From positions 25,996 to 89,995 of the forward strand of contig JAHDEZ010000003.1 in NCBI GenBank assembly GCA_020628425.1: a DNA stretch of 64,000 bases, given 5' to 3'. Numbering within the stretch: the stretch's first letter is position 1; every line of letters begins with the position of its first letter. A program made the position numbers and the translations under genes. The notes under the pieces are model-generated. The model saw only the letters and a list, made by a program, of their open reading frames with translations. It was not told where the DNA came from and made no database searches. This document shows, in pieces, positions 48,489 to 64,000 of the stretch. This DNA is from Hellea sp. Lineage in GTDB: Bacteria > Pseudomonadota > Alphaproteobacteria > Caulobacterales > Maricaulaceae.

Positions 48489-49703
48489 TTACCTATGTGC
48501 AAATGTAGTGCCGAACCACGGCACAGGATCCAAGGTAGACCCATTTTTCCTCACTTCTATATACAATTTTTCGTTAGATGCCGAATTAACAGGCATTAAT
48601 GCAAGACTATCGCCAGCCGAAACGTCAGAACCCCCTTGAATGTGCAATTGCCCCAACCCAGTCAAGAGGATGAAATACCCGTCTCCAGCGTTGATAATGA
48701 CGACATTCCCGTAGTTCTTAAAAGCACCTGCAAAATCAATCCGCCCAGCCGCCGGAGCAAACACCTCAGTTGAGCCTTCCGTTTCGATTGTTATACCGGG
48801 ATGGGCCGATGAATACCCCTTAACGAGAGTTCCGGTGACTGGAGAAAAAAGGTTTCCTTTAGATCTGGAGAACCTAATGTCGTCCGAAGAAAGATTGACT
48901 GGACGTGTTTCACGCCGATTGGATATGGCCGGTTGTTCCGATTTGGGCGCGTTAGGATCTGGCTTGATTCGAGGAATGACTTCACGCGAGCTATACTCTA
49001 GTCGATTAATCAACTCCTGGAGGTTCTGAGCTTCGGCAGCCAGAGCTTGCCGCCGCGCTTGAGCTTCGCCGTAGTCTGCGGTGAGACTGCGCTCTAATTG
49101 GTTTTTTTCAGTTACCTGGTTTTGTAAAATAGATTGCTTTGCTTGCAATTTTTGCCGGTTGCTATTTTGTGCAGCTTTCTTGTTAGCAATATCAGCGCGC
49201 AATAATTCTAATTCATCCAATGATGTTTTCAGTCTGGTTACCCGCAGTCCTAGCTGTGAATTAACATTACGCATTAAAAGCCCGGCCCTTACTGAATCAG
49301 CAGCGTCATTAGGGCGGACCGCAAAAGAGGGCGGCGGATTATTTTCAATACGTTGTAATGCCGCCATTATCCTCGTCATCGATGCCTTATCTTTAGTGAT
49401 GATTGCCTCTAGTTCTGACTTTTGAATTTCCAGCTGTGACAATTCTTGAGACATCTCGCTTTCTTGCTGAGATAACCGCGATATCTGACTGGAGGTCTGA
49501 TTGATGTTTGTCTTAAGCGACTTAATCTCAGACAGGACTTGGTCTCGCTTGGCCTTTATCTCATTTTCAATTTGGGCTTCGGCTTCGGTTTGTTTTTGAA
49601 TTTCTTCGAGTTTGTCCGGATCCAGATCTTGCCCATACCCCATTGTTGGCGAGTACAATATAAGCAGCACGCTTACAGCTGATATCCTGATGAACCGTTT
49701 CAT
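48489..49703 (-). CDS. envC: EnvC-like murein hydrolase activator (coiled coil + degenerate LytM/M23 domain)
   Basis: Signal peptide, about 230 aa of coiled coil, and a C-terminal LytM fold. The LytM fold lacks the HxxxD and HxH metal ligands (the region reads SSAHPGITIE...KLYIEVR), as in EnvC-type activators. Confidence 0.75.
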   Translation of the reverse strand: MKRFIRISAVSVLLILYSPTMGYGQDLDPDKLEEIQKQTEAEAQIENEIKAKRDQVLSEIKSLKTNINQTSSQISRLSQQESEMSQELSQLEIQKSELEAIITKDKASMTRIMAALQRIENNPPPSFAVRPNDAADSVRAGLLMRNVNSQLGLRVTRLKTSLDELELLRADIANKKAAQNSNRQKLQAKQSILQNQVTEKNQLERSLTADYGEAQARRQALAAEAQNLQELINRLEYSSREVIPRIKPDPNAPKSEQPAISNRRETRPVNLSSDDIRFSRSKGNLFSPVTGTLVKGYSSAHPGITIETEGSTEVFAPAAGRIDFAGAFKNYGNVVIINAGDGYFILLTGLGQLHIQGGSDVSAGDSLALMPVNSASNEKLYIEVRKNGSTLDPVPWFGTTFAHR

Positions 49704-49709
49704 ATTGAA

Positions 49710-50177
49710 TCAGTCACGATGATAGGGTGTATTTGCCAAAATCGACAAGGCTCGATACATTTGCTCAGCAGCCATAACGCGGACAAGTTTGTGGGGCCAG
49801 GTTTGGGAACCGAAAGACCATTTATGCACCATATTTGGCAAATCAGACGGTTCAAATCCGTCAGCGCCCCCGATAACCAGGCAGATGTCTGTTCCGTCCA
49901 TTTGCCAGACAGACAATGTTTTGGCTATTTGTCGTGAGGTGAGGTTTTCTCCACGTTCATCCAGAGCAATGTACCGGACCGAGCGGTGATGATCATAAAA
50001 TAGCTTTTGCGTTTCTTCACTGCGGCTCTTACACTTTCTGAGGTCAATTTCCTGTTCGCTAACAGAATGAAAGCCACACCTCGACGTCAGACCATTCGCT
50101 CGTTTCAGGTAGTCATCAACGAGCGTGCGTTCTGGTCCGATTCGGACAGTCCCAGCGGCACGGATTATCAGCTTCAT
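49710..50177 (-). CDS. rlmH: 23S rRNA (pseudouridine1915-N3)-methyltransferase RlmH
   Basis: 155 aa of the SPOUT family, with IGGADGF and the C-terminal WPHKLVRVMAAEQMYRA motif. Confidence 0.9.
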   Translation of the reverse strand: MKLIIRAAGTVRIGPERTLVDDYLKRANGLTSRCGFHSVSEQEIDLRKCKSRSEETQKLFYDHHRSVRYIALDERGENLTSRQIAKTLSVWQMDGTDICLVIGGADGFEPSDLPNMVHKWSFGSQTWPHKLVRVMAAEQMYRALSILANTPYHRD

Positions 50178-50632
50178 TCAGCAAAATAGGGGGCTTCACC
50201 GGCCTTTTGAACGGCTTCTGGTAGAGGGACTGACCAAATTTTTTCAAGGTTATAAAAGGCTCGGACCTCAGGTCGGAAAATATGGACAATAACATCTCCG
50301 AGGTCGACTAGAACCCAATCGTTACCTGTCTGCCCTTCAATACCCAGAGGGCGGTGGCCTTTTTCTTTGAGCTCATTGACTACGTAATCTGCTAAAGCTC
50401 CAACATGTCGATTGGAGCGTCCACACGTCACGATCATTATATCAGCCACCGAAGACTTTCCCTTGATGTCGATAGTAATTGTATCTTGTGCTGAGTGTTC
50501 GTTTAGAGTGTTTAAAACGATTTCCTTGATTTCCTTTGTCAGGGCATCTTCGGGAAGTTCGGCAGTCGAACTCGCAGTTTTTGTTTCAGTCAGTTTTGTC
50601 TCCATTGTTACCTGACGGGCCAAGCATAACAT
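50174..50632 (-). CDS. rsfS: Ribosome silencing factor RsfS
   Basis: Motifs ADIMIVTCGRSNRHVGALAD and DWVLVDLGDVIVHIF...R.FYNLEKIW. AAGGA lies 6 nt upstream of ATG 50632. An alternative ATG exists at 50605. Confidence 0.88.
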   Translation of the reverse strand: MLCLARQVTMETKLTETKTASSTAELPEDALTKEIKEIVLNTLNEHSAQDTITIDIKGKSSVADIMIVTCGRSNRHVGALADYVVNELKEKGHRPLGIEGQTGNDWVLVDLGDVIVHIFRPEVRAFYNLEKIWSVPLPEAVQKAGEAPYFAE

Positions 50633-50677
50633 GGTATTTCCTTAAAATCCACTAGCTCTCTAAGGCAATTCTTACGG

Positions 50678-51259
50678 CTAAACATTTTTAGTTCTGATAG
50701 CTGATGAAGAAAGCTTATTAAGAGGAGGGGTGACGTAACACCAGGCAGGGGCTTCGTAATGTTGCAGGCTCCCGGCTTCATATTCTGAAATGCGGGCATA
50801 TCGAAACACGCTGGCCGTTTTTCCGAGGCGGGCTCTCAAGGCTGTATTGTTTTTGCCTGGGCGTGCAATTACCCCTACGGGGACCGTGTTCATAATACCT
50901 TTCCAGTCACGCCATTTAGGGAATTGCAGGAGATTATCCGCCCCCATCAAAAATACGAATCGGGTCGATGGAAATTTTTTACGAGCGGCCTTGAGTGTAT
51001 CGATAGTATATTGCGTGCCAAAGTTCGACTCCATATGAGAAATACGCATTCGGTAGGGTAGCCCGAGTTTCTCTACTGTGGCAACACGAGTCGAATAGCT
51101 TGGTTGTTTTGGTTTTAGCGGGTTTTGTGGGCTAACCATCCACCAGATTTGATCCAGCTGGAATGCTTGTAATCCTTGAGTTGCAACATGCATATGCCCC
51201 GCATGTGCTGGATTAAATGAACCGCCAAATAGCCCTATGGAGAGACCTTCAAAGCTCAT
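50678..51259 (-). CDS. nadD: Nicotinate-nucleotide adenylyltransferase NadD
   Basis: 193 aa with the motif GGSFNPAHAGH (the (H/T)xGH nucleotidyltransferase signature). The start overlaps the proA stop. Confidence 0.9.
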   Translation of the reverse strand: MSFEGLSIGLFGGSFNPAHAGHMHVATQGLQAFQLDQIWWMVSPQNPLKPKQPSYSTRVATVEKLGLPYRMRISHMESNFGTQYTIDTLKAARKKFPSTRFVFLMGADNLLQFPKWRDWKGIMNTVPVGVIARPGKNNTALRARLGKTASVFRYARISEYEAGSLQHYEAPAWCYVTPPLNKLSSSAIRTKNV

Positions 51260-52520
51260 TTTGGACGCGTATGACCTTGGCCATGAACAAGATATTTATA
51301 GGTAGTTAGATGTTCTGCGCCAACCGGACCGCGGGCGTGCAGACGTCCCGTTGAAATTCCGATCTCAGCACCAAAACCAAACTCGCCTCCGTCCGCAAAT
51401 TGCGTTGAAGCGTTATGCATAACGATTGCACTATCCACGGCACATTGAAAGTGGTCTGCTACCAATTGATCGGATGTTATTATGGCATCTGTGTGGCCGC
51501 TTCCATAATGATTGATATGCTCTATAGCTTCGCTCGTATTTTCGACTATCTTGAGATTTAGAATAGGTGCAAGGTGTTCAGTGAAGTAGTCGTCTTCGAC
51601 TGCTAAAGTAATGTTCTCGTTGATGGATTTGGATTTCGCGTCGCCCCTGATTTCACAGCCATTTTCCACAAGAATATCGGTGATTTGTGGCAAAAATTTC
51701 GCGGCGATAATGTCATCAACTAACAAGGTTTCCGTGGATCCACAAACACCGGTCCTGCGCAATTTAGCATTCAGGACGACCTTTGCTGCCATAGCTAAAT
51801 CAGCCTTTTCATGAACATAGGTGTGACATAGTCCTTCTAAGTGGGCGAGGACAGGAATACGGGCATCGCTTTGAACCCGGGCTATCAAGCTTTTTCCGCC
51901 GCGTGGAATAATCATGTCGACATTGCCATGAAGACCACCCAAGAGATGTCCCACTGCAGCACGGTCTGTCGTCGGAATTAATTGGACCGACTGTTCTGGT
52001 AGTTCGGAATCATGCAAAGCTAATCTTATCGCAGCGTATATGGCTTGATTTGAGTGAAAGCTTTCCGAACCGCCTCGTAAAATACAGGCGTTTCCAGATT
52101 TCAGGCATAAAGCGGCAGCGTCAGCCGTAACATTGGGACGGCTTTCATAAATCATACCAATCACTCCAATCGGAATGCTAACCTTGGAAAAGCGCAAACC
52201 ATTAGGGCGCTCCCAAGATTTTAAAATTTTGCCGACTGGGTCATCCATTTTAGCAATTTCAGAGACGCTATTTGCGATAGCGGTGATGCGGGCAGGGGTA
52301 AGCTCAAGCCTATCCAACATAGCACCCGACAGGCCTTTGTCTCGGGCCTTATCCATGTCGGACTGATTAGCTTCAAGAATTTGATTTTTTGACCTAAGGA
52401 TACTGAGACTAATTTTATCGAGAGCCGCGGACTTCTTGACCGCTGAGATAAGCCCCAACGCATGTGCGGATGAACGGGCGTGGGTCCCGATATTAAAAAG
52501 TTTTTGCTCTAGAGTTTCAG

Positions 52521-52524
<4 letters not shown>
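51256..52524 (-). CDS. proA: Glutamate-5-semialdehyde dehydrogenase ProA
   Basis: 422 aa of the aldehyde dehydrogenase fold, with GVCGSTETLLV (catalytic Cys) and HGSGHTDAIIT. Confidence 0.95.
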
Positions 52525-54733
<2,209 letters not shown>

Positions 54734-55315
54734 TTAGGTGGCCTCTATGAGCATGGCAGGTTGTCTTTGCAAGCAATTTACACTTGCTTTTGAAACCTTC
54801 CGTATAAAGCCAATACTTTCTATATGTTTCAGGCGGGCCATTGAGAAATATGGCCCTTCAGAACCGGTGCTTGTAAAACCCAGTTTTTCCAGGACGCGCA
54901 TAGACGCTGGATTGTCTACATAAACGCCCGCAATAAATTGATCCACTCCAAGAGAGGATTGGGCTTCCAGCATCAAAGTTCTTGCGGCCTCGGAGGCATA
55001 GCCTTGCCCCCAAAAAGGACGGCCAACCCAATAGCCGAGCTCATAATCAGCATTTCTATGTCGACGAAATAGATCCATAATTCCAATGATGTCGCCGCCG
55101 TCCAAGGTAATGGCATATGGCAATGCGAGGCCGCGCCGCTTTTGGGACATCATATGCATAATTTTAAATTCAGCAGATATTACCGGAAAAGGATAGGGTA
55201 TACTGCCAGTCATTCGGCAGATATCCCATTCGCTCGCGTAACGTGAAAAAAGCGGTGCATCGGAAAGAGACAATGGTCGTAATGTCAGTCTTTCAGTTTC
55301 AATAATGTTCCGCAT
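54734..55315 (-). CDS. GNAT-family N-acetyltransferase (RimJ/RimL-like)
   Basis: ERLTLRPLSLSD at the N-terminus and the acetyl-CoA motif WGQGYASEAARTL. The start is ATG 55315, preceded by GGAGGCAGAA. The track's longer ORF (to 55477) would overlap rpmA. Confidence 0.8.
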   Translation of the reverse strand: MRNIIETERLTLRPLSLSDAPLFSRYASEWDICRMTGSIPYPFPVISAEFKIMHMMSQKRRGLALPYAITLDGGDIIGIMDLFRRHRNADYELGYWVGRPFWGQGYASEAARTLMLEAQSSLGVDQFIAGVYVDNPASMRVLEKLGFTSTGSEGPYFSMARLKHIESIGFIRKVSKASVNCLQRQPAMLIEAT

Positions 55316-55334
55316 TTCTGCCTCCGAAGGGCAG

Positions 55335-55370
55335 GGAAAAAAGAAGGGAAACCGGCAATCCGATTTCCCT
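55335..55370 (-). terminator. Rho-independent terminator/attenuator between rpmA and the GNAT-obg genes
   Basis: On the minus strand, gggaaatcgg-attg-ccggtttccc (one mismatch) is followed by ttctttttt. Plus-strand coordinates are stem 55346-55355 and 55360-55369. Confidence 0.55.
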
Positions 55371-55412
55371 GCTGTATCAGATCGCCTTTGCGACCTGTCT
55401 ATATGGGGGTCG

Positions 55413-55682
55413 CTATTCTGCTGCGTTTGCGAGCGGTGCCACAGACACGTAAGTTCGCTTATTGCGTTTCGTGGCAAACTCGACCTTACCTTCTGTCAGT
55501 GCAAATAGTGTGTGATCCTTACCCATCCCAACATTATTTCCTGGGAAGAATTTTGTTCCGCGCTGACGTACAATAATATTGCCCGGAATGACGGCCTCGC
55601 CGCCAAATTTCTTTACACCCAGCCGACGGCCAGCACTATCGCGACCGTTATTGGATGAACCACCTGCTTTTTTATGTGCCAT
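55413..55682 (-). CDS. rpmA: 50S ribosomal protein L27
   Basis: [28 protein letters not shown], 89 aa. Confidence 0.98.
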
Positions 55683-55705: not shown

Positions 55706-56017
55706 TTAGGCCTTGATAGACGTGATTTTAATAACGGTCTCGTTTTGACGATGACCGCGCTTACGGCGATAAGTCTGACGGCGTTTCTTTTTAAACACTA
55801 CGACCTTGTCACCTTTACGCTGCTCAAGAACTTCGCCTTTGACTTCAGCTCCTTTTACCAAGGGCTCACCAATTTTAACTTTGGCGCCTTCGCCACATGC
55901 TAAAACATCTTTAAACGAAACAGTTTTGCCCTCTTCGGCATCGAGCTTTTCAACGATAATTACATCGTCTTTAGCAACTTTATACTGTTTACCGCCTGTC
56001 TGAATGACTGCAAACAT
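55706..56017 (-). CDS. rplU: 50S ribosomal protein L21
   Basis: [14 protein letters not shown]..., 103 aa, directly upstream of rpmA. Confidence 0.98.
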
Positions 56018-56235: not shown

Positions 56236-59200
56236 CTAGCGAACCCAGCGGCCGATGATTTGACCAGCTGAGTTGATGATATTTCCGTTCGCATCCAAGC
56301 GACCGATAACAGCACCTGCCGCGTCAACAATCATACCGTCAGCGCGCAGCGAATAACCGCCGGCTGAACCCATGCTCATTGCACCGCCAGAGGTCATTCC
56401 ACCTGTGGACATGCTGCCGCCGGAAGTCATACCACCAGTAGACATTGAGCCTGTGCTGAAGCTTGAAACGCGGCCCAAAACCTGACCGGAAGATGTCACA
56501 ATATTGCCGCTTCCATCGACGGAACCAATCACGGCACCAGAGCTGTTCATAACCTGACCAGAGCTAGTGATTGTGTAGGTTGCGCCACTGATAGTGACAG
56601 TTTGCGAACCGGTTGTCGTTGTAAAGCCGCTAGAGCCTACGGTACCTGAGAAGGAACCGGAAGAACCGCTAACCATTGAACGCCAGTTTACACCCAGTCT
56701 TTCAACTGTTGTTAGTGTCAGACCACCGGTCGAAAGACCGTTAGCTGCCTGGTAACGTTCAACCGCAGAGTAAGTCTGCTGACCCAAGCGTCCATCAATG
56801 GCGCCTGTGTAGTAGCCCTCTGTCTTCAGCGCACGCTGGATAGCAGAGATAACGGTTGTCGTTGCGTTAGCCTCACAAAGAACCTGACGCCATTCGACTT
56901 TCTCTTGAGACAGAGGTGTCCGCTTCACGATCTCACCGAACTCAGCCGGGATAACAATCGCTTCAGTACGTGCTGGCTCAGCCAGACGTGTAACTTCGAT
57001 TGTATCATAAACAGCTGGGATGACACGGCGTTCCATCCGAGGTGTTCCATCGACCACACGACGTGTGACCTGTTTGGTAACCGCTGGAATGACGCGCTCT
57101 TCTGTCCGTGCTGGCGTTTTCACGACTTGACGTGAAACCTGCTTAGTCACGGCTGGAATGACACGCTCTTGTGTCGTAGCCGGTGTCTTAATCCGACGGC
57201 GTGTCTCAGTCTTAGTGACGGCCGGAATGACCTTCTCGACTGTACGAGCCGGGGTCTTAACGACCCGACGGGATACCTGCTGTGTAACAGCTGGGATAAC
57301 GCGCTCTGTCGTACGAGCCGGATCCTTCACAACGCGGCGACTGACTGTCTTAGTGACGGCCGGAATGACGCGCTCTGTCGTAGCAGCTGGTGTCTTAACG
57401 ACACGACGCTGAACCTGCTGTGTGACGGCCGGAATGACCTTCTCAACAGTCCGGGCAGGGGTCTTCACAACTTGACGTGAAACCTGCTTGGTGACCGCTG
57501 GGATGACACGCTCTTGTGTTTGAGCTGGTGTCCGAACAACACGACGGCTGACCGTTTTTGTCACTGCTGGAACAACCTTCTCGACGGTGCGAGCGGCGTC
57601 CTTAACAACACGACGGCTAACCTGCTTTGTGACGGCTGGGACAACCTTCTCGACAGTGCGAGCAGGTGTCTTAACGACACGGCGAGTTTCCATCTTGGTC
57701 ACAGCTGGGATGACACGCTCAGTTGTAGACGCTGGTGTCTTGACAACACGGCGGGTCTCAACCTTTGTCACAGCCGGTACAACCTTCTCAACAGTCCGGG
57801 CCGGTGTCTTGACGACGCGGCGAGAGACTTGCTGAGTAACAGCTGGAATGACACGCTCGGTAGTCGACGCAGGCGTCTTAACAACACGGCGAGTCAGCTG
57901 CTTTGTGACAGCTGGAATGACACGCTCTGTTGTTGCAGCCGGAGTCTTAATCCGACGACGTGTTTCCTGCTTGGTGATAGCCGGAATGACCTTCTCGACA
58001 GTACGCGCCGGCGTCTTAACAACGCGACGTGAAACCTGCTTAGTCACAGCAGGGATGACGCGTTCAGTTGTCGCCGCTGGTGTTTTAACAACACGACGGG
58101 TTTCCATCTTGGTCACTGCCGGAATGACGCGCTCAGTTGTCCGAGCCGGTGTCTTAACGACGCGGCGGGAAACCTGCTTAGTCACAGCTGGGATGACCCT
58201 CTCCACCGTAGAGGCGGGTGTCTTAACAACACGACGCTGCTCAACTTTTGTGATGGCCGGTACAACACGCTCTTGTGTAGCAGCCGGAGTTTTCACCACG
58301 CGACGAGAGACCTGTTTGGTAACCGCTGGAACAACCTTTTCGACTGTTCTGGCTGGCGTCTTGATGACACGCTGAGTTTCCATTTTGGTCACGGCCGGGA
58401 TGACACGCTCGGTCGTTGCAGCCGGAGACTTAACGATGCGGCGAGAAACCTGCTTCGTAATCGCTGGGATAACTTTCTCAACGGTACGAGCTGGTGTCTT
58501 GATGACGCGACGCTGCTCCATTCTTGTGACGGCCGGGATGACCTTCTCAACTGTTGAAGCTGGCGTCTTCACGACACGGCGTGAAACCTGCTTGGTGACA
58601 GCTGGGATGACCTTCTCGACAGTACGAGCTGGTGTCTTGATCCGACGACGTGTTTCCTGCTTGGTGACAGCCGGGATTGTCCGCTCAGTTGTCCGAGCAG
58701 GGGTCTTCACGACGCGACGTGAAACCTGCTTAGTTACAGCTGGGATGACTTTCTCGACAGTGCGAGCTGGTGTCTTAACAACACGACGCGTTTCCTGCTT
58801 CGTGATAGCCGGATTGACTTTCTCAACAGTTGAAGCCGGTGTCTTAACGACGCGACGGCTAACCTGCTTTGTCACGGCCGGAACTGTACGTTCAGTAGTA
58901 GCCGCTGGCGTTTTAATAACGCGGCGGGTTTCTACCTTAGTAACAGCCGGTATAACACGCTCTGTCGTAGCAGCCGGTGTCTTTACGACACGGCGGGAGA
59001 CCTGCTTGGTGACCGCTGGGACAACGCGCTCGACAGTGCGAGCCGGTGTCTTCACGACGCGGCGGGTTTCCTGCTTGGTAACAGCTGGGATGACTTTCTC
59101 GACAGTGCGAGCTGGCTGGTCAACGACACGACGCGTGATTTGCTTCGTGACGGCCGGAATAGTCCGCTCACGTGTCTGAGCCGGTGTCTTAACAACACGA

Positions 59201-62200
59201 CGCTGACGCATTTGCGTGACGGCCGGAATGACCTTCTCGACGGTGCGAGCTGGCTCTTTAACGACGCGGCGAGAAACCGTTTTTGTTACAGCTGGGATAA
59301 CCTTCTCAACTGTACGGGCCGGGTTCTTGATGCGACGGCGTGTTTCCTGCTTTGTGACGGCTGGAATGACGCGCTCTGTCGTGGCAGCCGGTGTCTTGAC
59401 GACACGACGCTGAACAGTTTGCGTGACGGCCGGAATGACCTTTTCTACTGTACGGGCCGGTGTTTTAACAACACGGCGTGTTTCCTGTTTGGTGACAGCC
59501 GGAATGACCTTTTCACGGGTCTGAGCCGGAGTATCAACGACGCGACGAGTTACCTGCTTCGTTACAGCTGGAATAACCTTCTCAACCGTACGGGCCGGCG
59601 TCTTAACGCGACGACGTGTTTCTGTCTTCGTAACAGCAGGGATAACGCGTTCTGTCGTTGTCGCTGGCTTGTCAACCACACGGCGTGTGATTTGCTTAGT
59701 GACAGCTGGGATAACCTTTTCAACAGTCCGTGCCGGTGTCTTAACAACACGGCGAGAGACCTGCTTGGTCACAGCTGGAACAACGCGCTCGACAACTTTC
59801 GCTTCCTCAGCAACTTCAGTCACCTGGTATGTACCCATGCGCTGGCCAAACTGACCGGACGACGAACCGCCATAAGAACGGCGACCTGTGCCGGCATTGT
59901 TGGCGTCGGCGTCAGCAGCAGAAGCCGCTGAACGAGTCAGGCCGTCACGGTCATCACGACCATCGCCATTTCCGTCAACAAACCCTGAGATAGACCCGCC
60001 GAAACCACCAGCGTCAGAACGAGACACAACACGGGCCGGTGTCTTAACGACGCGGCGTGTGATGGTATCTGTTACGGCTGGAACAGCGATTTCGCGAGTT
60101 GTAGCTTCACGGTCAACCACACGACGTGTGAGTGTCTTGGTGACAGCCGGGATACGCTTTTCGACGGTCCGAGCTTCAGTCTTAACGACCTGCTTGGTGA
60201 TAGTTTTATACTGAGCCGGGATAAGAACACGACAGATAATTTCACCAGTTGGTGAAACAGATGTCTGTGTTGATTCCACGATACGCTCATTTACACCGTC
60301 AAACACTGTAAACTGACCACGTGTGTTTGTGTTCACTGTACCAGAGGCACTAAACTGACCGGCGTTTACAGCCTGAGAGGCTGATTTCCACTCTTCGCGA
60401 GCAGGTGAAATCAGAACGCGCTCAGTGCGAGTCTCATATGTCGCTGGAATAACGTCGATGTCGACTGACTCTGGACGTACAACGACTGTCTCAGTGACAG
60501 TTCTGTAGGTCGCAGGTACAACTTCCAAGCGGGTTGAGGCTTCCTGAACAACAATTGTCTCAGTAACGGTCTCATATGTAGCCGGAATAACAACCAGTTC
60601 TTCGGCTGCATCTTTGGCGATATATGTGCGTTGGCTGGACTGCATCTTAGCGGGTACAGTAACGTACTCGACAGTCTGCGGTTGAACAACAACGGTCTCA
60701 GTGACAGTTTCAAACTCAGCCGGAATGGTGACCAACTCAGTTGTAGCTTCCTGAACAACAACGGTTTCTGTGACTGTCGCATAAGTCGCTGGAACTGCAA
60801 TCAGTTCGCTTGATGCTTCCTGAACAACGATTGTTTCATTGTAAGTCTCATATGTCGCAGGAACTGTCTCATAAGTTACAGACTGCGGCTGAACAACAAC
60901 GGTTTCCGTAACAGTCTTAAATGTTGGCGGAATTGTAACCAGTTCAGTTGAAGCGTCACGAACAACGACTGTTTCAGTAACTGTGTCGTAGACAGCAGGT
61001 ACAGTAACGAGCTCAGTCGAAGCTTCCTGGACAACAACTGTTTCATTCACAGTTTCGTAAACAGCCGGGATAGTGACCAACTCGGTCGTAGCTTCCTGGA
61101 CAACAACAGTTTCTGTGTATGTTTCATACTCAGCAGGAACAGTCACATAGTCCACAGATTGCGGCTGAACAACGATTGTTTCTGTTACAGTCTCGAATGT
61201 GGCTGGAACAGTTACTAGCTCAGTTGAGGCTGCTTGTACAACGACAGGCTCTTCAACAGTTTCAAAGACTGGTGGGATTGTCACCAACTCAGTTGAAGCT
61301 TCCTGAACGACAACAGTTTCAGTAACTGTGTTGTATGTGGCTGGAACAGTAACCAGCTCGGTAGATGCTTCCTGAACGACAACAGTTTCTGTCACAGTTT
61401 CGTAAACCGGTGGAACGGTTTCGTATGTAACAGACTGCGGCTGAACAACAACGGTTTCAGTAACGGTTTCAAACGTTGCCGGGATGGTTACCAACTCAGT
61501 AGAAGCGTCCTGAACAACTACAGTCTCCTGCACAGTTTCATATGTTGCTGGGATGCTAACATATTCAGTCGTAGCAGGCTGAACAACGATTGTCTCGGTG
61601 ACGGTCTCATATGTGGCTGGAACAGTTACCAGCTCAGTTGAGGCTTCCTGAACAACAATTGTCTCGGTGACGTTTTCGTAAACCGGTGGAACGGTTTCGT
61701 AAGTCACAGATTGTGGCTGAACAACAACAGTTTCAGTAACAGTTTCGAATGTAGCCGGAATTGTTACCAATTCAGTAGACGCATCCTGAACGACGATTGT
61801 TTCTGTATAAGTTTCGTACTCAGCAGGAATGGTGACGTAGTCAACGGATTGTGGCTGAACAACGATTGTCTCTGTTACAGTCTCATAAGTGGCTGGAACA
61901 GTGATAAGTTCTGTTGTGGCCGGTTGAATAACAACCGGTTCTTCGACAGTTTCATATGTCGGAGGAATGACCTCATATGTGACACTCTGAGGCTGAACAA
62001 CAACCGTTTCAGTAACTGTTTCGAATACCGGTGGAACGGTAACCAGTTCAGTTGAAGCCTCTTGAACAACAACAGGAATTTGCTGTGTTTCATAAGTCGC
62101 CGGGATTGTCTCATAAGCAACAGACTGAGGCTGAACAACAACAGTTTCAGTAACTGTTTCGAACGTAGCCGGAATCGTTACCAATTCGGTAGACGCTTCT

Positions 62201-64000
62201 TGGACAACAACGGTTTCACTAACAGTCTCATATACTGGCGGTACAACAACGTACTCAACAGATTGAGGCTGCACAACAACAGTTTCCGTGACAGTTTCGA
62301 ATACCGGCGGAACTGTAATTAGTTCCGTAGAAGCCGCTTGTACAATGACAGGCTCCTGAACGGTTTCAAATGTAGCAGGAACAGAGATATACTCGGTTGA
62401 TGCCGGCTGCACGACAACTGTCTCAGTTACAGTGTCGTATACTGGTGGTACTGTAACCAACTCAGTAGATGCTTCCTGAACAACAACAGTTTCTGTGTAT
62501 GTTTCGTACTGTGCCGGCACGACAACATATTCTACTGACTGCGGTTGAACAACAACCGTCTCAGCAACGGTCTCAAACGTTGCAGGGATAGTCACCAATT
62601 CTGTAGCAGCATCCTTAACGACAACTGTTTCAGTCACTGTTTCGAATTCGGCCGGAACAGTAATCAACTCGGTTGTCGCCGGTTGAATAACAACTGTTTC
62701 AGAAACAGTTTCGAATGTTGCAGGAATTGTTACCAACTCAGTAGTAGCTTCCTGAACGACAACAGTCTCTTGAACAGTTTCAAAAGTTGCTGGAATTGTC
62801 TCATAAGTTACAGATTGCGGCTGCACAACGACTGTTTCTGTTACGGTCTCGAACGTAGCAGGTACGGTGACCAACTCAGTTGAGGCATCCTTAACAACAA
62901 CAGTCTCTGTGACAGTTTCGAAAACTGGTGGAATTGTGACCAGCTCAGTAGTTGCTTCCTGAACAACCATTGTCTCGGTAACCGTCTCATAAGTAGCTGG
63001 CACAGTAACCAACTCAGTTGAGGCGTCTTGGACAACAACAGTTTCAGTAACCGTTTCATAAGTAGGCGGCACAGTGACATAGTCGACACTCTGCGGCTGA
63101 ACCACAACGGTTTCGCTAACTGTTTCGTAAGTAGCAGGGATTGTTACGAGCTCTGTCGTTGCATCTTTAACAACAACAGTCTCCGTGACCGTGTCGTAAA
63201 CAGGGGGTACGGTTACGAGCTCGGTTGAGGCTTCCTGAACAACGACTGTTTCGCTGTATGTTTCGTAAGTGGCAGGTACGGTGACATACTCTACTGTCTG
63301 TGGCTTCACGGTTACGGTTTCCGTTACGGTCTCGTAGACTGGTGGGATTGTAACCATTTCTGTGGAGGCTTCTTGCACAACGACAGTCTCTGTGACTGTT
63401 CGGAAGGTAGAGGCCATTGAGCCTGCTGTGCTTCCGCCGGTTGCCGTTACGCGAACCGCATTGGATGCCAGAATAGAGCCGCCAGTGCTAACAACATTTC
63501 CACTTGAGTCGACACGTCCGACAACCATGCCGCCGGCACTCGCAGAAGCAAGGCGAGCCGCGCCGCTAGAATCGATAGTGTAAATGGTGCCGCCGACTGC
63601 AACTGCTGAAGGATAACCACCGCTTGCCAGTCGAGCAACGCCACGTGCGATGACTGAACCGTTTGCGCCAACGATATCACCATTGGCATTCACGCTGCCG
63701 ATTGGAGCGCCACCAGCGCCGCCGCCTGCAGTTGTAACTGTTCCGTCTGGGGAAATATTAAACAGTACACCGCCAATTGTTACTGTTGAAGGATAACGAT
63801 ATCCGCCAACGCCAACTGGAACGAGCTCGTAAGATTCTTCTTTTACGAGGACACGCTCTGGAACTGTTTCATATCGGGCTGGGATTTTTCTCAGCTCGGT
63901 GGATTCCGGTTTGATGACAATCCGCTCGGTTGTCGTTTCATAAGTTGCCGGGACAATCACCCGGGCAAAACATTCGCCCGGCAGCGGATTACCTGGTGGT
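56236..64000 (-). CDS. Giant repeat protein (partial; 5' end beyond the window): acidic 23-aa array + basic 23-aa array + peptidoglycan-binding domain + Gly/Ser-rich tail
   Basis: This is a single open frame. The track starts it at GTG 63960, but the frame stays open to 64000 (...PPGNPLPGECFARVIVPATYETT). The PG_binding_1-like segment ISAIQRALKTEGYYTGAIDGRLGQQTYSAVERYQAANGL lies at about 56690-56860. A terminator follows the stop. Confidence 0.85.
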   Translation of the reverse strand, partial: PPGNPLPGECFARVIVPATYETTTERIVIKPESTELRKIPARYETVPERVLVKEESYELVPVGVGGYRYPSTVTIGGVLFNISPDGTVTTAGGGAGGAPIGSVNANGDIVGANGSVIARGVARLASGGYPSAVAVGGTIYTIDSSGAARLASASAGGMVVGRVDSSGNVVSTGGSILASNAVRVTATGGSTAGSMASTFRTVTETVVVQEASTEMVTIPPVYETVTETVTVKPQTVEYVTVPATYETYSETVVVQEASTELVTVPPVYDTVTETVVVKDATTELVTIPATYETVSETVVVQPQSVDYVTVPPTYETVTETVVVQDASTELVTVPATYETVTETMVVQEATTELVTIPPVFETVTETVVVKDASTELVTVPATFETVTETVVVQPQSVTYETIPATFETVQETVVVQEATTELVTIPATFETVSETVVIQPATTELITVPAEFETVTETVVVKDAATELVTIPATFETVAETVVVQPQSVEYVVVPAQYETYTETVVVQEASTELVTVPPVYDTVTETVVVQPASTEYISVPATFETVQEPVIVQAASTELITVPPVFETVTETVVVQPQSVEYVVVPPVYETVSETVVVQEASTELVTIPATFETVTETVVVQPQSVAYETIPATYETQQIPVVVQEASTELVTVPPVFETVTETVVVQPQSVTYEVIPPTYETVEEPVVIQPATTELITVPATYETVTETIVVQPQSVDYVTIPAEYETYTETIVVQDASTELVTIPATFETVTETVVVQPQSVTYETVPPVYENVTETIVVQEASTELVTVPATYETVTETIVVQPATTEYVSIPATYETVQETVVVQDASTELVTIPATFETVTETVVVQPQSVTYETVPPVYETVTETVVVQEASTELVTVPATYNTVTETVVVQEASTELVTIPPVFETVEEPVVVQAASTELVTVPATFETVTETIVVQPQSVDYVTVPAEYETYTETVVVQEATTELVTIPAVYETVNETVVVQEASTELVTVPAVYDTVTETVVVRDASTELVTIPPTFKTVTETVVVQPQSVTYETVPATYETYNETIVVQEASSELIAVPATYATVTETVVVQEATTELVTIPAEFETVTETVVVQPQTVEYVTVPAKMQSSQRTYIAKDAAEELVVIPATYETVTETIVVQEASTRLEVVPATYRTVTETVVVRPESVDIDVIPATYETRTERVLISPAREEWKSASQAVNAGQFSASGTVNTNTRGQFTVFDGVNERIVESTQTSVSPTGEIICRVLIPAQYKTITKQVVKTEARTVEKRIPAVTKTLTRRVVDREATTREIAVPAVTDTITRRVVKTPARVVSRSDAGGFGGSISGFVDGNGDGRDDRDGLTRSAASAADADANNAGTGRRSYGGSSSGQFGQRMGTYQVTEVAEEAKVVERVVPAVTKQVSRRVVKTPARTVEKVIPAVTKQITRRVVDKPATTTERVIPAVTKTETRRRVKTPARTVEKVIPAVTKQVTRRVVDTPAQTREKVIPAVTKQETRRVVKTPARTVEKVIPAVTQTVQRRVVKTPAATTERVIPAVTKQETRRRIKNPARTVEKVIPAVTKTVSRRVVKEPARTVEKVIPAVTQMRQRRVVKTPAQTRERTIPAVTKQITRRVVDQPARTVEKVIPAVTKQETRRVVKTPARTVERVVPAVTKQVSRRVVKTPAATTERVIPAVTKVETRRVIKTPAATTERTVPAVTKQVSRRVVKTPASTVEKVNPAITKQETRRVVKTPARTVEKVIPAVTKQVSRRVVKTPARTTERTIPAVTKQETRRRIKTPARTVEKVIPAVTKQVSRRVVKTPASTVEKVIPAVTRMEQRRVIKTPARTVEKVIPAITKQVSRRIVKSPAATTERVIPAVTKMETQRVIKTPARTVEKVVPAVTKQVSRRVVKTPAATQERVVPAITKVEQRRVVKTPASTVERVIPAVTKQVSRRVVKTPARTTERVIPAVTKMETRRVVKTPAATTERVIPAVTKQVSRRVVKTPARTVEKVIPAITKQETRRRIKTPAATTERVIPAVTKQLTRRVVKTPASTTERVIPAVTQQVSRRVVKTPARTVEKVVPAVTKVETRRVVKTPASTTERVIPAVTKMETRRVVKTPARTVEKVVPAVTKQVSRRVVKDAARTVEKVVPAVTKTVSRRVVRTPAQTQERVIPAVTKQVSRQVVKTPARTVEKVIPAVTQQVQRRVVKTPAATTERVIPAVTKTVSRRVVKDPARTTERVIPAVTQQVSRRVVKTPARTVEKVIPAVTKTETRRRIKTPATTQERVIPAVTKQVSRQVVKTPARTEERVIPAVTKQVTRRVVDGTPRMERRVIPAVYDTIEVTRLAEPARTEAIVIPAEFGEIVKRTPLSQEKVEWRQVLCEANATTTVISAIQRALKTEGYYTGAIDGRLGQQTYSAVERYQAANGLSTGGLTLTTVERLGVNWRSMVSGSSGSFSGTVGSSGFTTTTGSQTVTISGATYTITSSGQVMNSSGAVIGSVDGSGNIVTSSGQVLGRVSSFSTGSMSTGGMTSGGSMSTGGMTSGGAMSMGSAGGYSLRADGMIVDAAGAVIGRLDANGNIINSAGQIIGRWVR
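56905..59800 (-). repeat. In-frame tandem array of 42 basic 69-nt / 23-aa units (consensus IPAVTKQVSRRVVKTPARTVEKV)
   Basis: The translation has a strict 23-aa period. Each unit carries about 3 Lys, 3 Arg and 1 Glu. Units with KQVSRRVVK and K(Q/M/V)ETRR(V/I)K largely alternate through the central part. Confidence 0.9.
60400..63405 (-). repeat. In-frame tandem array of ~44 acidic 69-nt / 23-aa units (consensus PATYETVTETVVVQEASTELVTV)
   Basis: The translation has a strict 23-aa period. Each unit carries about 4 Glu and no Lys or Arg. 'QPQSVxY' variant units recur every 2-4 units. Confidence 0.9.

Follow-up and report, generated by a model that had tools for sequence, protein, structure and literature searches.

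A giant predicted peptidoglycan-binding protein of Hellea sp. whose acidic and basic repeat arrays appear to pair in antiparallel register

Here, we describe a giant gene at the end of a 64,000-nucleotide stretch of Hellea sp. DNA (assembly GCA_020628425.1, contig JAHDEZ010000003.1, positions 25,996 to 89,995 of the forward strand; hereafter the window, in whose numbering all positions are given), the product of which carries two long arrays of a 23-amino-acid (aa) unit, the first acidic and the second basic. The open reading frame (ORF) lies on the minus strand (56236..63999), contains no stop from 63999 down to the stop codon at 56236–56238, and comprises 2,587 codons plus stop, starting with PPGNPLPGECFARVIVPATYETT where its 5' end is cut by the window edge. 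The original prediction, which was made from the letters alone, had described a frame of more than 2,580 codons that was open to the edge, and this proved correct except that the codon frame ends at 63999 and not at 64000. The mechanical ORF list called the same gene at 56236–63960, from an internal GTG. A terminator had been described after the stop, and an intrinsic-terminator-like hairpin was indeed located there on the minus strand (56214–56191), with a 10-bp stem containing 7 G-C pairs and a T-run.

The segments of the protein, all encoded on the minus strand, are named here after the hairpin that is proposed below. The GECFARV landmark that opens arm 1 (aa 8–14; 63958..63978) includes Cys10, and this motif and its Cys were invariant in 118/118 short relatives. 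It is followed by two base units of mixed charge (aa 16–61; 63817..63954), for which pairing with aa 2327–2372 is suggested by extension of the register, and by a Gly-rich, weakly DUF3659-like insert (aa 62–194; 63418..63816). The acidic arm proper consists of 40 units of 23 aa (aa 195–1114; 60658..63417; net charge −135) and leads, through one degenerate unit (aa 1115–1137; 60589..60657), to three tip units (aa 1138–1206; 60382..60588) that close with the EEW landmark (Trp1204). A putative hairpin tip loop (aa 1207–1259; 60223..60381) contains the GEIIC landmark (Cys1256) that opens arm 2, which begins with three transitional tip units (aa 1260–1328; 60016..60222), an Asp/Gly-rich bulge (aa 1329–1383; 59851..60015) that varies in length among orthologues, and a pseudo-unit (aa 1384–1406; 59782..59850) that the register would place opposite the degenerate unit of arm 1. 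The basic arm proper again has 40 units of 23 aa (aa 1407–2326; 57022..59781; net charge +157) and ends in two base units (aa 2327–2372; 56884..57021) and the EWRQVLCEA landmark (56869..56895; Trp2370, Cys2375), the Cys of which is a candidate disulfide partner of Cys10. A PG_binding_1 domain (PF01471; aa 2384–2435; 56695..56850; E = 4.6e-10; 40.0 bits relative to a Pfam gathering cut-off of 23 bits), homologous to a domain in a short relative, and a Gly/Ser-rich tail with DUF3659/Bflower_2-like repeats (aa 2441–2587; 56239..56679) complete the protein, in agreement with the C-terminal arrangement described originally. On the strength of the Pfam match, the giant is predicted to be a peptidoglycan-binding protein.

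Both arrays had the 69-nucleotide period claimed for them, which Tandem Repeats Finder reported at 57056–59780 and 60683–63285 together with super-periods of 138 and 276 nucleotides. When units were anchored on Pro-Ala, the whole acid array (aa 195–1206; 60382–63417) comprised 44 units, each exactly 23 aa long with zero indels, as predicted (~44); the ~45 basic units of the original prediction were counted as 41 units of 23 aa, also with zero indels (aa 1407–2349; 56953–59781), plus the three transitional units (60016–60222), which bridge the acid and basic unit types. Further canonical units, two per end, were found at aa 16–61 and aa 2327–2372. The net charge was −140 for the acid array (isoelectric point (pI) 4.05), +155 for the basic array (pI 11.98) and +10 for the transitional units (pI 11.46), and Val and Thr together made up 44% of the composition. 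The consensus units VPATYETVTETVVVQPASTELVT (acid) and IPAVTKQVTRRVVKTPARTVERV (basic) aligned without gaps and the Glu positions of one unit were the Lys/Arg positions of the other, as first described, and a profile–profile comparison placed the two units in register (E = 1.2e-4). This exchange of Glu for Lys/Arg arises because positions 6, 10 and 14 are symmetric about position 10 in antiparallel register. Exactly three Cys were present in the giant (Cys10, Cys1256 and Cys2375), each at a family landmark, and the same was true of nearly all giants of 2,600–3,000 residues.

We scanned one genome per species with the first 200 residues as query and recovered 59 orthologue loci, all in Hellea, Litorimonas, Algimonas, Robiginitomaculum and unnamed Caulobacterales, the closest being that of a Hellea metagenome-assembled genome (MAG; L001). 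These genera are dimorphic prosthecate marine bacteria of the Robiginitomaculaceae, a clade of macroalgal epiphytes (PMC11556061). All 59 loci encoded MKRTLLLAASAAVLAAPTIAQ(E/D)L, of the form MKRTLL...AQ(E/D)L, directly before the first residue of the window, so that all that is missing from the window is a signal peptide of 23 residues (MKRTLLLAASAAVLAAPTIAQEL; 23 codons), which is of the Sec type and not a lipobox. Full-length orthologues measured 2,500–3,090 aa, and the acid-then-base charge profile was present in 36/36 of them. The giant gene stood directly upstream of rplU-rpmA in 35/37 loci; three short ORF calls (L005, L032 and L035) left 1.6–2.7 kb before rplU and are therefore truncated calls rather than short forms. 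The giants were missing from both large protein collections, even where they derived from RefSeq isolates (~2,500–3,100 aa); only N-terminal fragments of 66–120 aa were present, and a search with the N-terminal 73 aa matched only 8 short fragments, so that the silence of these collections on other giants outside the clade is not evidence.

Truncated ORFs and deviant unit counts in some MAG orthologues could point to an assembly or annotation artefact, in which repeats were expanded or collapsed or a non-coding low-complexity tract was called as a gene. Against this, DNA identity between units was only 61–65% (maximum 88%), synonymous sites between units were saturated (proportion of synonymous differences, pS, 0.66–0.72; proportion of nonsynonymous differences, pN, 0.21–0.26), at least 35 independent assemblies, some of them complete genomes or from isolates, contained an intact ORF, and three other independent assemblies (L001, L002 and L026) had nearly the same unit counts as the window. 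In addition, the ratio of nonsynonymous to synonymous substitution rates (dN/dS) relative to orthologues was 0.03–0.10, with dS saturated, and synteny with rplU was conserved. By these sequence measures the arrays are real and the giant gene is under strong purifying selection, and we give an artefact a negligible probability.

With a 46-column unit profile built from the double units of the window, an exhaustive HMMER search of 1.84 billion representative proteins gave 1,912 matching proteins at E ≤ 1e-3, of which 226 reached E ≤ 1e-30; each of the best 150 matches was at most 1,044 aa long. These short proteins shared one plan, which from N- to C-terminus reads: a signal peptide or lipoprotein signal (often with a coiled-coil leader), G-x-C-(Y/F)-A-x-V, an array 1 that closes in Trp, a short linker, C-L-V-E-x-P-A, array 2, W-x-x-V-L-C-E-x-N and PG_binding_1. 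Typical units were PAxYETVTEQVLVKEASTRLE in array 1 and IPAxYKTVTRxVVKTPAxTRE in array 2, and in variants an OmpA domain was inserted or a CAP domain stood at the C-terminus. Database names of the members were only "peptidoglycan-binding protein" or "hypothetical". The statement in the original prediction that short relatives fused to PG-binding or OmpA domains exist without assigned function was therefore borne out (for example by P0025, with OmpA and PG_binding_1). No OmpA match (PF00691) was obtained for the giant in Pfam, which also lacks any model of the repeats, PG_binding_1 being the only match of the short relative P0166; no PDB chain matched the unit profile in sequence, and we found nothing in the literature on the family or on charge-inverted repeat giants.

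The giant has all of the family landmarks, namely GECFARV (Cys10), EEW (Trp1204), GEIICRV (Cys1256) and EWRQVLCEAN (Trp2370, Cys2375), and by sequence it is therefore a hyper-expanded member of this widespread, uncharacterised two-array family. Each of the defining features looked for in the giant was found: the signal (in orthologues), the landmarks, the units, the equal unit numbers and the antiparallel covariation. Short members, such as WP_190766422.1 of Spongiibacter pelagi and the homologues from Hyphomonas johnsonii (P0243) and Hirschia litorea (P0184), resemble the giant in the 23-aa PA-anchored unit, the landmarks, the C-terminal PG_binding_1 domain, the equal unit numbers, the antiparallel coupling between arrays and an array 2 that is usually the more basic. 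They differ in having ~4–8 units per array (variants with an inserted OmpA domain measure longer) rather than 46, and charges of about −0.4 and +1.3 per unit rather than about −3.4 and +3.9. In many of them, a lipoprotein signal precedes a coiled-coil leader; the giant has the Gly-rich modules and the Asp/Gly bulge in addition. The genomic neighbours also differ, with purB/VIT1 next to the Hyphomonas short member and rplU next to the giant, and no synteny was found between the giant and the short Hyphomonas homologue.

To locate partner units, we pooled mutual information (MI) between unit pairs over the 17 genomes with 51 acid and 50 basic units and scanned every antiparallel and parallel register. 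Summed MI peaked at the antiparallel register a+b = 46, where a and b number the acid and basic units (28.0 relative to a background of 20–24; best parallel register 26.4), and the pair of acid position 11 and basic position 7 came out newly on top there, with an MI of 0.55 compared to 0.10–0.22 at all of the 37 other registers. Individual substitutions were mirrored across the arms. In 21 genomes (the window and 20 orthologues), acid Tyr8 and basic Arg12 occurred together in 91 rungs, Tyr alone in 0, Arg alone in 12 and neither in 854, and in the window all five coincided (5/5; p = 1.7e-6), at the units starting at aa 241/2258, 494/2005, 724/1775, 954/1545 and 1046/1453. The same held for acid Pro/Ala11 and basic Met7 (both, acid only, basic only, neither: 113/16/12/816; window 4/4, p = 6e-5) and for loss of Glu/Asp at acid position 6 with loss of Lys/Arg at basic position 14 (82/20/87/768 pooled; window 3/0/0/36, p = 1.1e-4). 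In the last case, Asn6, Lys6 and Ala6 of the window (units at aa 885, 1023 and 1069) lie opposite units with Asp14 (aa 1614, 1476 and 1430), which are the only Asp14 units in the paired stretch, a fourth (aa 2304) having no counted partner. One of these rungs is a true charge swap, from Glu6·Lys14 to Lys6·Asp14, and the sole acid unit with Ile10 (aa 632) is opposite the sole basic unit with Gln10 (aa 1867).

The best antiparallel Tyr8/Arg12 register was nA−5 in 21/21 genomes, with nA the number of acid units, which gave 46, 38 and 40 for the three array sizes. Opposed positions in the long strand summed to 20 (6–14, 8–12 and 10–10), and the short strand paired one unit over with a phase sum of ~41; both arms can therefore lie entirely in one continuous antiparallel register. 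A per-unit MI matrix across species contained an antidiagonal at a+b = 45–46 (z = 3.2) and also a diagonal at b−a = −1 (z = 4.4). This parallel signal, in which the basic index equals the acid index minus one, was carried by positions that follow a period-2 alternation of subtypes (acid 16, 19 and 21 with basic 8), and it is probably an alias of that alternation. This matrix alone left the choice of register ambiguous, which the pooled tests of individual positions then settled. Taken together, the mirrored substitutions make it very likely indeed that the acid and basic arms pair antiparallel.

We then counted Pro-anchored units in each chain (acid/basic) and related the counts to the register. 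The chain was 51/50 in ~22 genomes, which span four genera and include isolates as well as complete or long-read genomes (L013, L027, L033, L044, L047 and L059), 43/42 in the window, L002 and L026 (Hellea balneolensis DSM 19091), 43/43 in L001 and 45/44 in L037. Under the register, the window would form 46 rungs: two base rungs (aa 16–61 with aa 2327–2372), 40 charged rungs (aa 195–1114, net −135, with aa 1407–2326, net +157), one degenerate rung (aa 1115–1137 with aa 1384–1406) and three tip rungs (aa 1138–1206 with aa 1260–1328), the Gly-rich insert (aa 62–194) and the Asp/Gly bulge (aa 1329–1383) looping out. Rungs with Tyr8/Arg12, counted from the tip, served as markers to locate deletions. 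The markers stood at rungs 6, 10, 24, 38 and 49 in the 51/50 genomes, at 6, 10, 20, 30 and 41 in the window and L002, at 6, 10, 30 and 41 in L026 (which lacks the marker at rung 20) and at 6, 10, 24, 32 and 43 in L037, and in every genome group the positions were the same in the acid and the basic arm. By this spacing, two losses of four rungs each occurred in the lineage of the window, one in the interval from marker 10 to marker 24 and one in the interval from 24 to 38, and six rungs were lost from the latter interval in L037. Every time, the rungs that disappeared were the same in both arms, the coding regions of which are several kilobases apart; four rungs correspond to 276 nucleotides, the super-period found by Tandem Repeats Finder. 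A constraint of unit-for-unit pairing predicts such matched losses, in that loss of a unit from one arm would have to be matched by loss of its partner. Rung number is, judging by these patterns, under selection, with 54 rungs in most genera and 46 in the Hellea group to which the window belongs.

These results bear on the two hypotheses of the original prediction, an electrostatic zipper that pairs unit for unit and a peptidoglycan-anchored polyelectrolyte fibre. The former gained strong support from the mirrored substitutions as well as from the equal-number rule and antidiagonal couplings of the short relatives described below. An unpaired fibre or brush, the halves of which would act independently and bind cations, anionic polymers or DNA, would suit the extreme pI of the halves (4.05 and 11.98) and a single-sequence AlphaFold run that gave beta structure from acid units alone and left basic units unstructured. 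However, independent arms explain neither the paired deletions nor why, in 21 genomes and in a single antiparallel register, substitutions mirror each other at residue level, a charge swap among them, and a Val+Thr content of 44% with dN/dS of 0.03–0.10 across the arrays is not brush-like; we consider this fibre very improbable.

The pairing was also visible in the short relatives. Starting from P0166, an alphaproteobacterial member with 4+4 units, 294 homologues were gathered (Hyphomonas, Hirschia and others), of which 118 were aligned. In mean-field direct coupling analysis (DCA) of these 118 sequences, 15 of the top 20 cross-array couplings fell on i+j = 297–304 (1.6 expected), as did 22 of the top 50 (4.0 expected; p = 6e-12), with antidiagonal z-scores up to 6.1 and no diagonal above 2.3, that is, without a parallel signal. 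The antidiagonal still contained 10 of the top 20 couplings when the alignment was restricted to the 86 sequences free of indels (p = 9e-7). Misalignment of repeats would give diagonals and thus does not explain the antidiagonal. The landmarks of P0166 lie on the same line (Cys38+Cys265 = 303; Trp133+Cys167 = 300). Cys38 and Cys265 were conserved in 118/118 sequences, as was the motif G, and Cys167 in 115/118, which suggests a Cys38–Cys265 disulfide that would close the open end of a hairpin. AlphaFold2 on the P0166 alignment gave a mean predicted local distance difference test score (pLDDT) of 74.8 and a predicted template modelling score (pTM) of 0.60; the repeat region was all-beta with two strands per unit, and the DSSP strand segments mirrored each other under i+j = 300. 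A Foldseek search with this model found no significant PDB match for the repeat part (best E = 0.03, TM-score <0.1), its PDB matches being confined to the PG_binding_1 part (SleB N-terminal domain, SltB2/3).

Array lengths in the short family followed an equal-number rule. When 53 canonical short members were split into arrays at the landmarks, the two arrays were of nearly equal length (90/88 aa in ~25 proteins, then 113/111, 136/134 and 159/157; r = 0.91), and in 87% of these members array 2 had the more basic charge per unit (mean +1.29, compared to −0.40 for array 1). Small blocks of true acid and true basic units, ~3–4 each, also stand side by side in P0021, P0024, P0039, P0040, P0057 and P0058, where their fusion partners are vWA/YfbK_C domains, a TonB plug, an anti-sigma-like N-terminus or an unassigned C-terminal domain. 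It seems that a charge-complementary hairpin is a reusable module that predates the giant.

On balance, and with moderate confidence, we favour a reading in which the giant is a Sec-exported, peptidoglycan-binding structural protein whose acid arm zips onto its basic arm as one long beta hairpin. After export, the chain would fold back at the tip loop (aa 1207–1259), and the arms would run antiparallel in one continuous register of 46 units of 23 residues, or ~1,050 residues per arm. In each of 40 charge-complementary rungs, an acidic unit (net about −3.4) would face a basic unit (net about +3.9), with acid Glu6 against basic Lys14 and acid Glu10 against basic Arg10 on one face of the long strand and Val–Val contacts interleaved. 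Charge segregation would bar acid–acid and base–base mispairing and drive heterotypic zipping of two very similar beta-prone arrays. The resulting shape may be a two-stranded, Pro-Ala-kinked beta hairpin, possibly coiled further or assembled, with a length of ~350 nm as a flat extended ribbon (1,058 residues × 0.33 nm) or ~45 nm if compact at ~1 nm per rung. The base would unite the N-terminus, a probable Cys10–Cys2375 disulfide, PG_binding_1 and the two Gly-rich modules; with PG_binding_1 at the base, this arrangement would fix one end of the rod to the cell wall, the rod projecting from the peptidoglycan or lying along it.

Several observations weigh against this reading. With its Val faces exposed, a two-stranded ribbon would probably not remain isolated. 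The P0166 model was confident only at the array ends, with middle units at pLDDT <50, and a single-sequence AlphaFold run on aa 1000–1544 of the window (pLDDT 38.9, pTM 0.36) left the basic units as coil. The signal peptide was seen in orthologues only, the window being 5'-truncated, and several MAG orthologues had unequal arrays (49/44, 51/46, 51/48 and 39/37), for which assembly collapse is possible. Finally, covariation would be alike for an intramolecular hairpin and for domain-swapped pairing between molecules.

The same antiparallel acid–base pairing could thus link separate molecules into dimers, open-ended polymers or a wall-anchored network. A domain swap would satisfy the equal-number rule as well as the covariation, the ~135–157 net charges of a lone arm would favour any partner at hand, and the exposed Val-rich faces suggest higher-order association. 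On the other side, the register keeps the same position relative to the tip in three different array sizes (c = nA−5), the tip linker of the short relatives is only ~30 residues with C38+C265 and W133+C167 on the contact antidiagonal, and closure within one molecule has the kinetic advantage; no single point among these decides the matter. From the sequence comparisons, we judge intramolecular pairing likely and pairing between molecules unlikely.

The location of the protein was considered separately. The orthologue signal peptide and the PG_binding_1 domain suggest that it is periplasmic and wall-anchored, which we hold to be somewhat probable. It might instead form a cell-surface or extracellular fibre, such as an adhesin or a stalk- or holdfast-associated element, that retains the zipper but differs in location and role. 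The dimorphic, prosthecate and epiphytic lifestyle of the clade would fit such a fibre, a rod of this contour length cannot span the periplasm, and the Gly-rich DUF3659/Bflower_2-like modules have no assigned function. However, Pfam and NCBIfam scans contained no autotransporter barrel, RTX or type I secretion system (T1SS) signal, type IX secretion system C-terminal domain or sorting signal, PG_binding_1 lies in the C-terminal region, the neighbours at the window locus are housekeeping genes (rplU-rpmA-obg) with no secretion-system genes among them, and many short relatives are lipoproteins; a surface fibre is accordingly rated improbable. Features of giant T1SS/RTX or Ig-like adhesins (LapA, SiiE and Bap type, with Ig- or cadherin-like repeats of ~90–100 aa) were likewise absent from the Pfam and NCBIfam scans.

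For the wall-anchored hairpin, the conservation of rung number in four genera, together with the matched deletions, points to an envelope element that measures length or bears load in stalked marine bacteria. We tentatively suggest, at less than even probability, a length-defining structural role in their envelope, as a strut, strap or ruler of fixed length. More speculatively, the two-array proteins may represent an undescribed fold class, a fold-back beta zipper with residue-by-residue antiparallel pairing of two distant arrays, that was expanded in the Robiginitomaculaceae to a peptidoglycan-anchored strap or strut of 46–54 rungs (~45–350 nm, depending on its compactness). Such a strap could set an envelope dimension of these stalked bacteria as a molecular ruler, perhaps the girth of the prostheca or the internal architecture of the stalk, and it would be charge inversion that makes so long a zipper of homotypic repeats foldable.

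No described counterpart of the charge-inverted giant was found in the literature, Pfam or solved structures, and several known systems share single principles with it. In streptococcal antigen I/II adhesins (SpaP, SspB), a long stalk arises from antiparallel pairing of two repeat arrays that are far apart in the chain and match in repeat number, and the N- and C-terminal regions thereby come to lie next to each other. That stalk is an alpha-helix wound with a polyproline-II helix, has no acid/base segregation and belongs to a Gram-positive LPXTG surface protein, whereas the giant is Val/Thr-rich and predicted beta, has no such domain in Pfam and no sequence or domain similarity; the analogy is one of principle only. 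SMC and Rad50 coiled-coil hairpins and designed acid/base leucine zippers likewise fold back length-matched arms or use charge complementarity to enforce heterotypic pairing. These are alpha-helical, cytoplasmic and unrelated, in contrast to the beta-prone units of the giant with Pro-Ala breaks every 14 and 9 residues. To our knowledge, no described fold-back analogue is related to the giant or built of beta strands.

Exported proteins that attach to peptidoglycan, such as Lpp, Pal, the OmpA family and LpoA/B, are tens to hundreds of residues long and have other folds, and length matters for some of them. In the two-array family, unlike these tethers, both chain ends would lie at the same end of the rod, giving a projection from the wall and not a bridge. 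Elongated beta proteins whose length is set by repeat number (E-G5 repeats of SasG/Aap, OspA sheets, and beta-solenoids such as curli and ice-nucleation proteins) fold each repeat with its neighbours in sequence, whereas the partner of a unit in the giant would be up to ~2,100 residues away on the other arm. Rod-like beta repeat and solenoid families (curli, ice-nucleation, antifreeze) gave no Pfam match to the giant, no PDB sequence match to the unit profile and no significant Foldseek match.

If the model is true, the giant would contain the longest intramolecular beta pairing known to us, at ~1,050 residues per arm, in a predicted fold absent from PDB and Pfam. Its register could be read straight from the sequence, and it would be a natural case of charge segregation forcing heterotypic pairing of near-identical beta repeats, a design principle also of interest for protein nanomaterials. 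The model would also supply a structural rule (equal, antiparallel arrays) for ~1,900 database clusters that are named only "peptidoglycan-binding protein".

The two Gly-rich modules (aa 62–194 and aa 2441–2587) contain similar repeats of the 'G-x-V-D-x-x-G-N-I-V' type. One interrupts arm 1 near its base and the other is the C-terminal tail, and both would adjoin PG_binding_1 in the hairpin model; the N-terminal module is missing from the Robiginitomaculum loci L053, L055 and L057. The tail matched DUF3659 (E = 1.7e-11) and, just below the 38-bit cut-off, Bflower_2 (E = 7.9e-09, 35.8 bits). The Asp/Gly-rich bulge, directly after the three tip units of the basic arm, reads GFVDGNGDGRDDRDG... 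and presumably resembles calcium-binding loops. Together with the adjoining pseudo-unit, it forms an arm-2 linker of 78 aa in the window, ~24 aa in L002, L011 and L017, and ~80 aa in most other loci.

Two further database matches were rejected as compositional. The Pfam match to UFL1_C, a domain of the eukaryotic E3 UFM1 ligase (aa 1391–1461; 59617–59829; E = 1.2e-11; 44.9 bits relative to a 24-bit cut-off), is judged to reflect the Lys/Arg/Glu-rich composition of the first basic units, and alpha-2-macroglobulin-like proteins matched by composition only in a whole-protein homology search. Antisense ORFs of 172–264 aa run through the basic array on the plus strand (57514–59931) and are most likely stop-free by-products of codon composition rather than genes.

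No tRNA or transfer-messenger RNA genes were detected in the 64-kb window, nor any Rfam family at gathering threshold. Downstream of the giant gene, and on the same strand, the stretches 48489–55682 and 55706–56017 contain a conserved run of housekeeping genes, namely rplU, rpmA, a GNAT acetyltransferase gene, obg, proB, proA, nadD, rsfS and rlmH, and after it a gene for an EnvC-like M23 peptidase with an N-terminal coiled coil.

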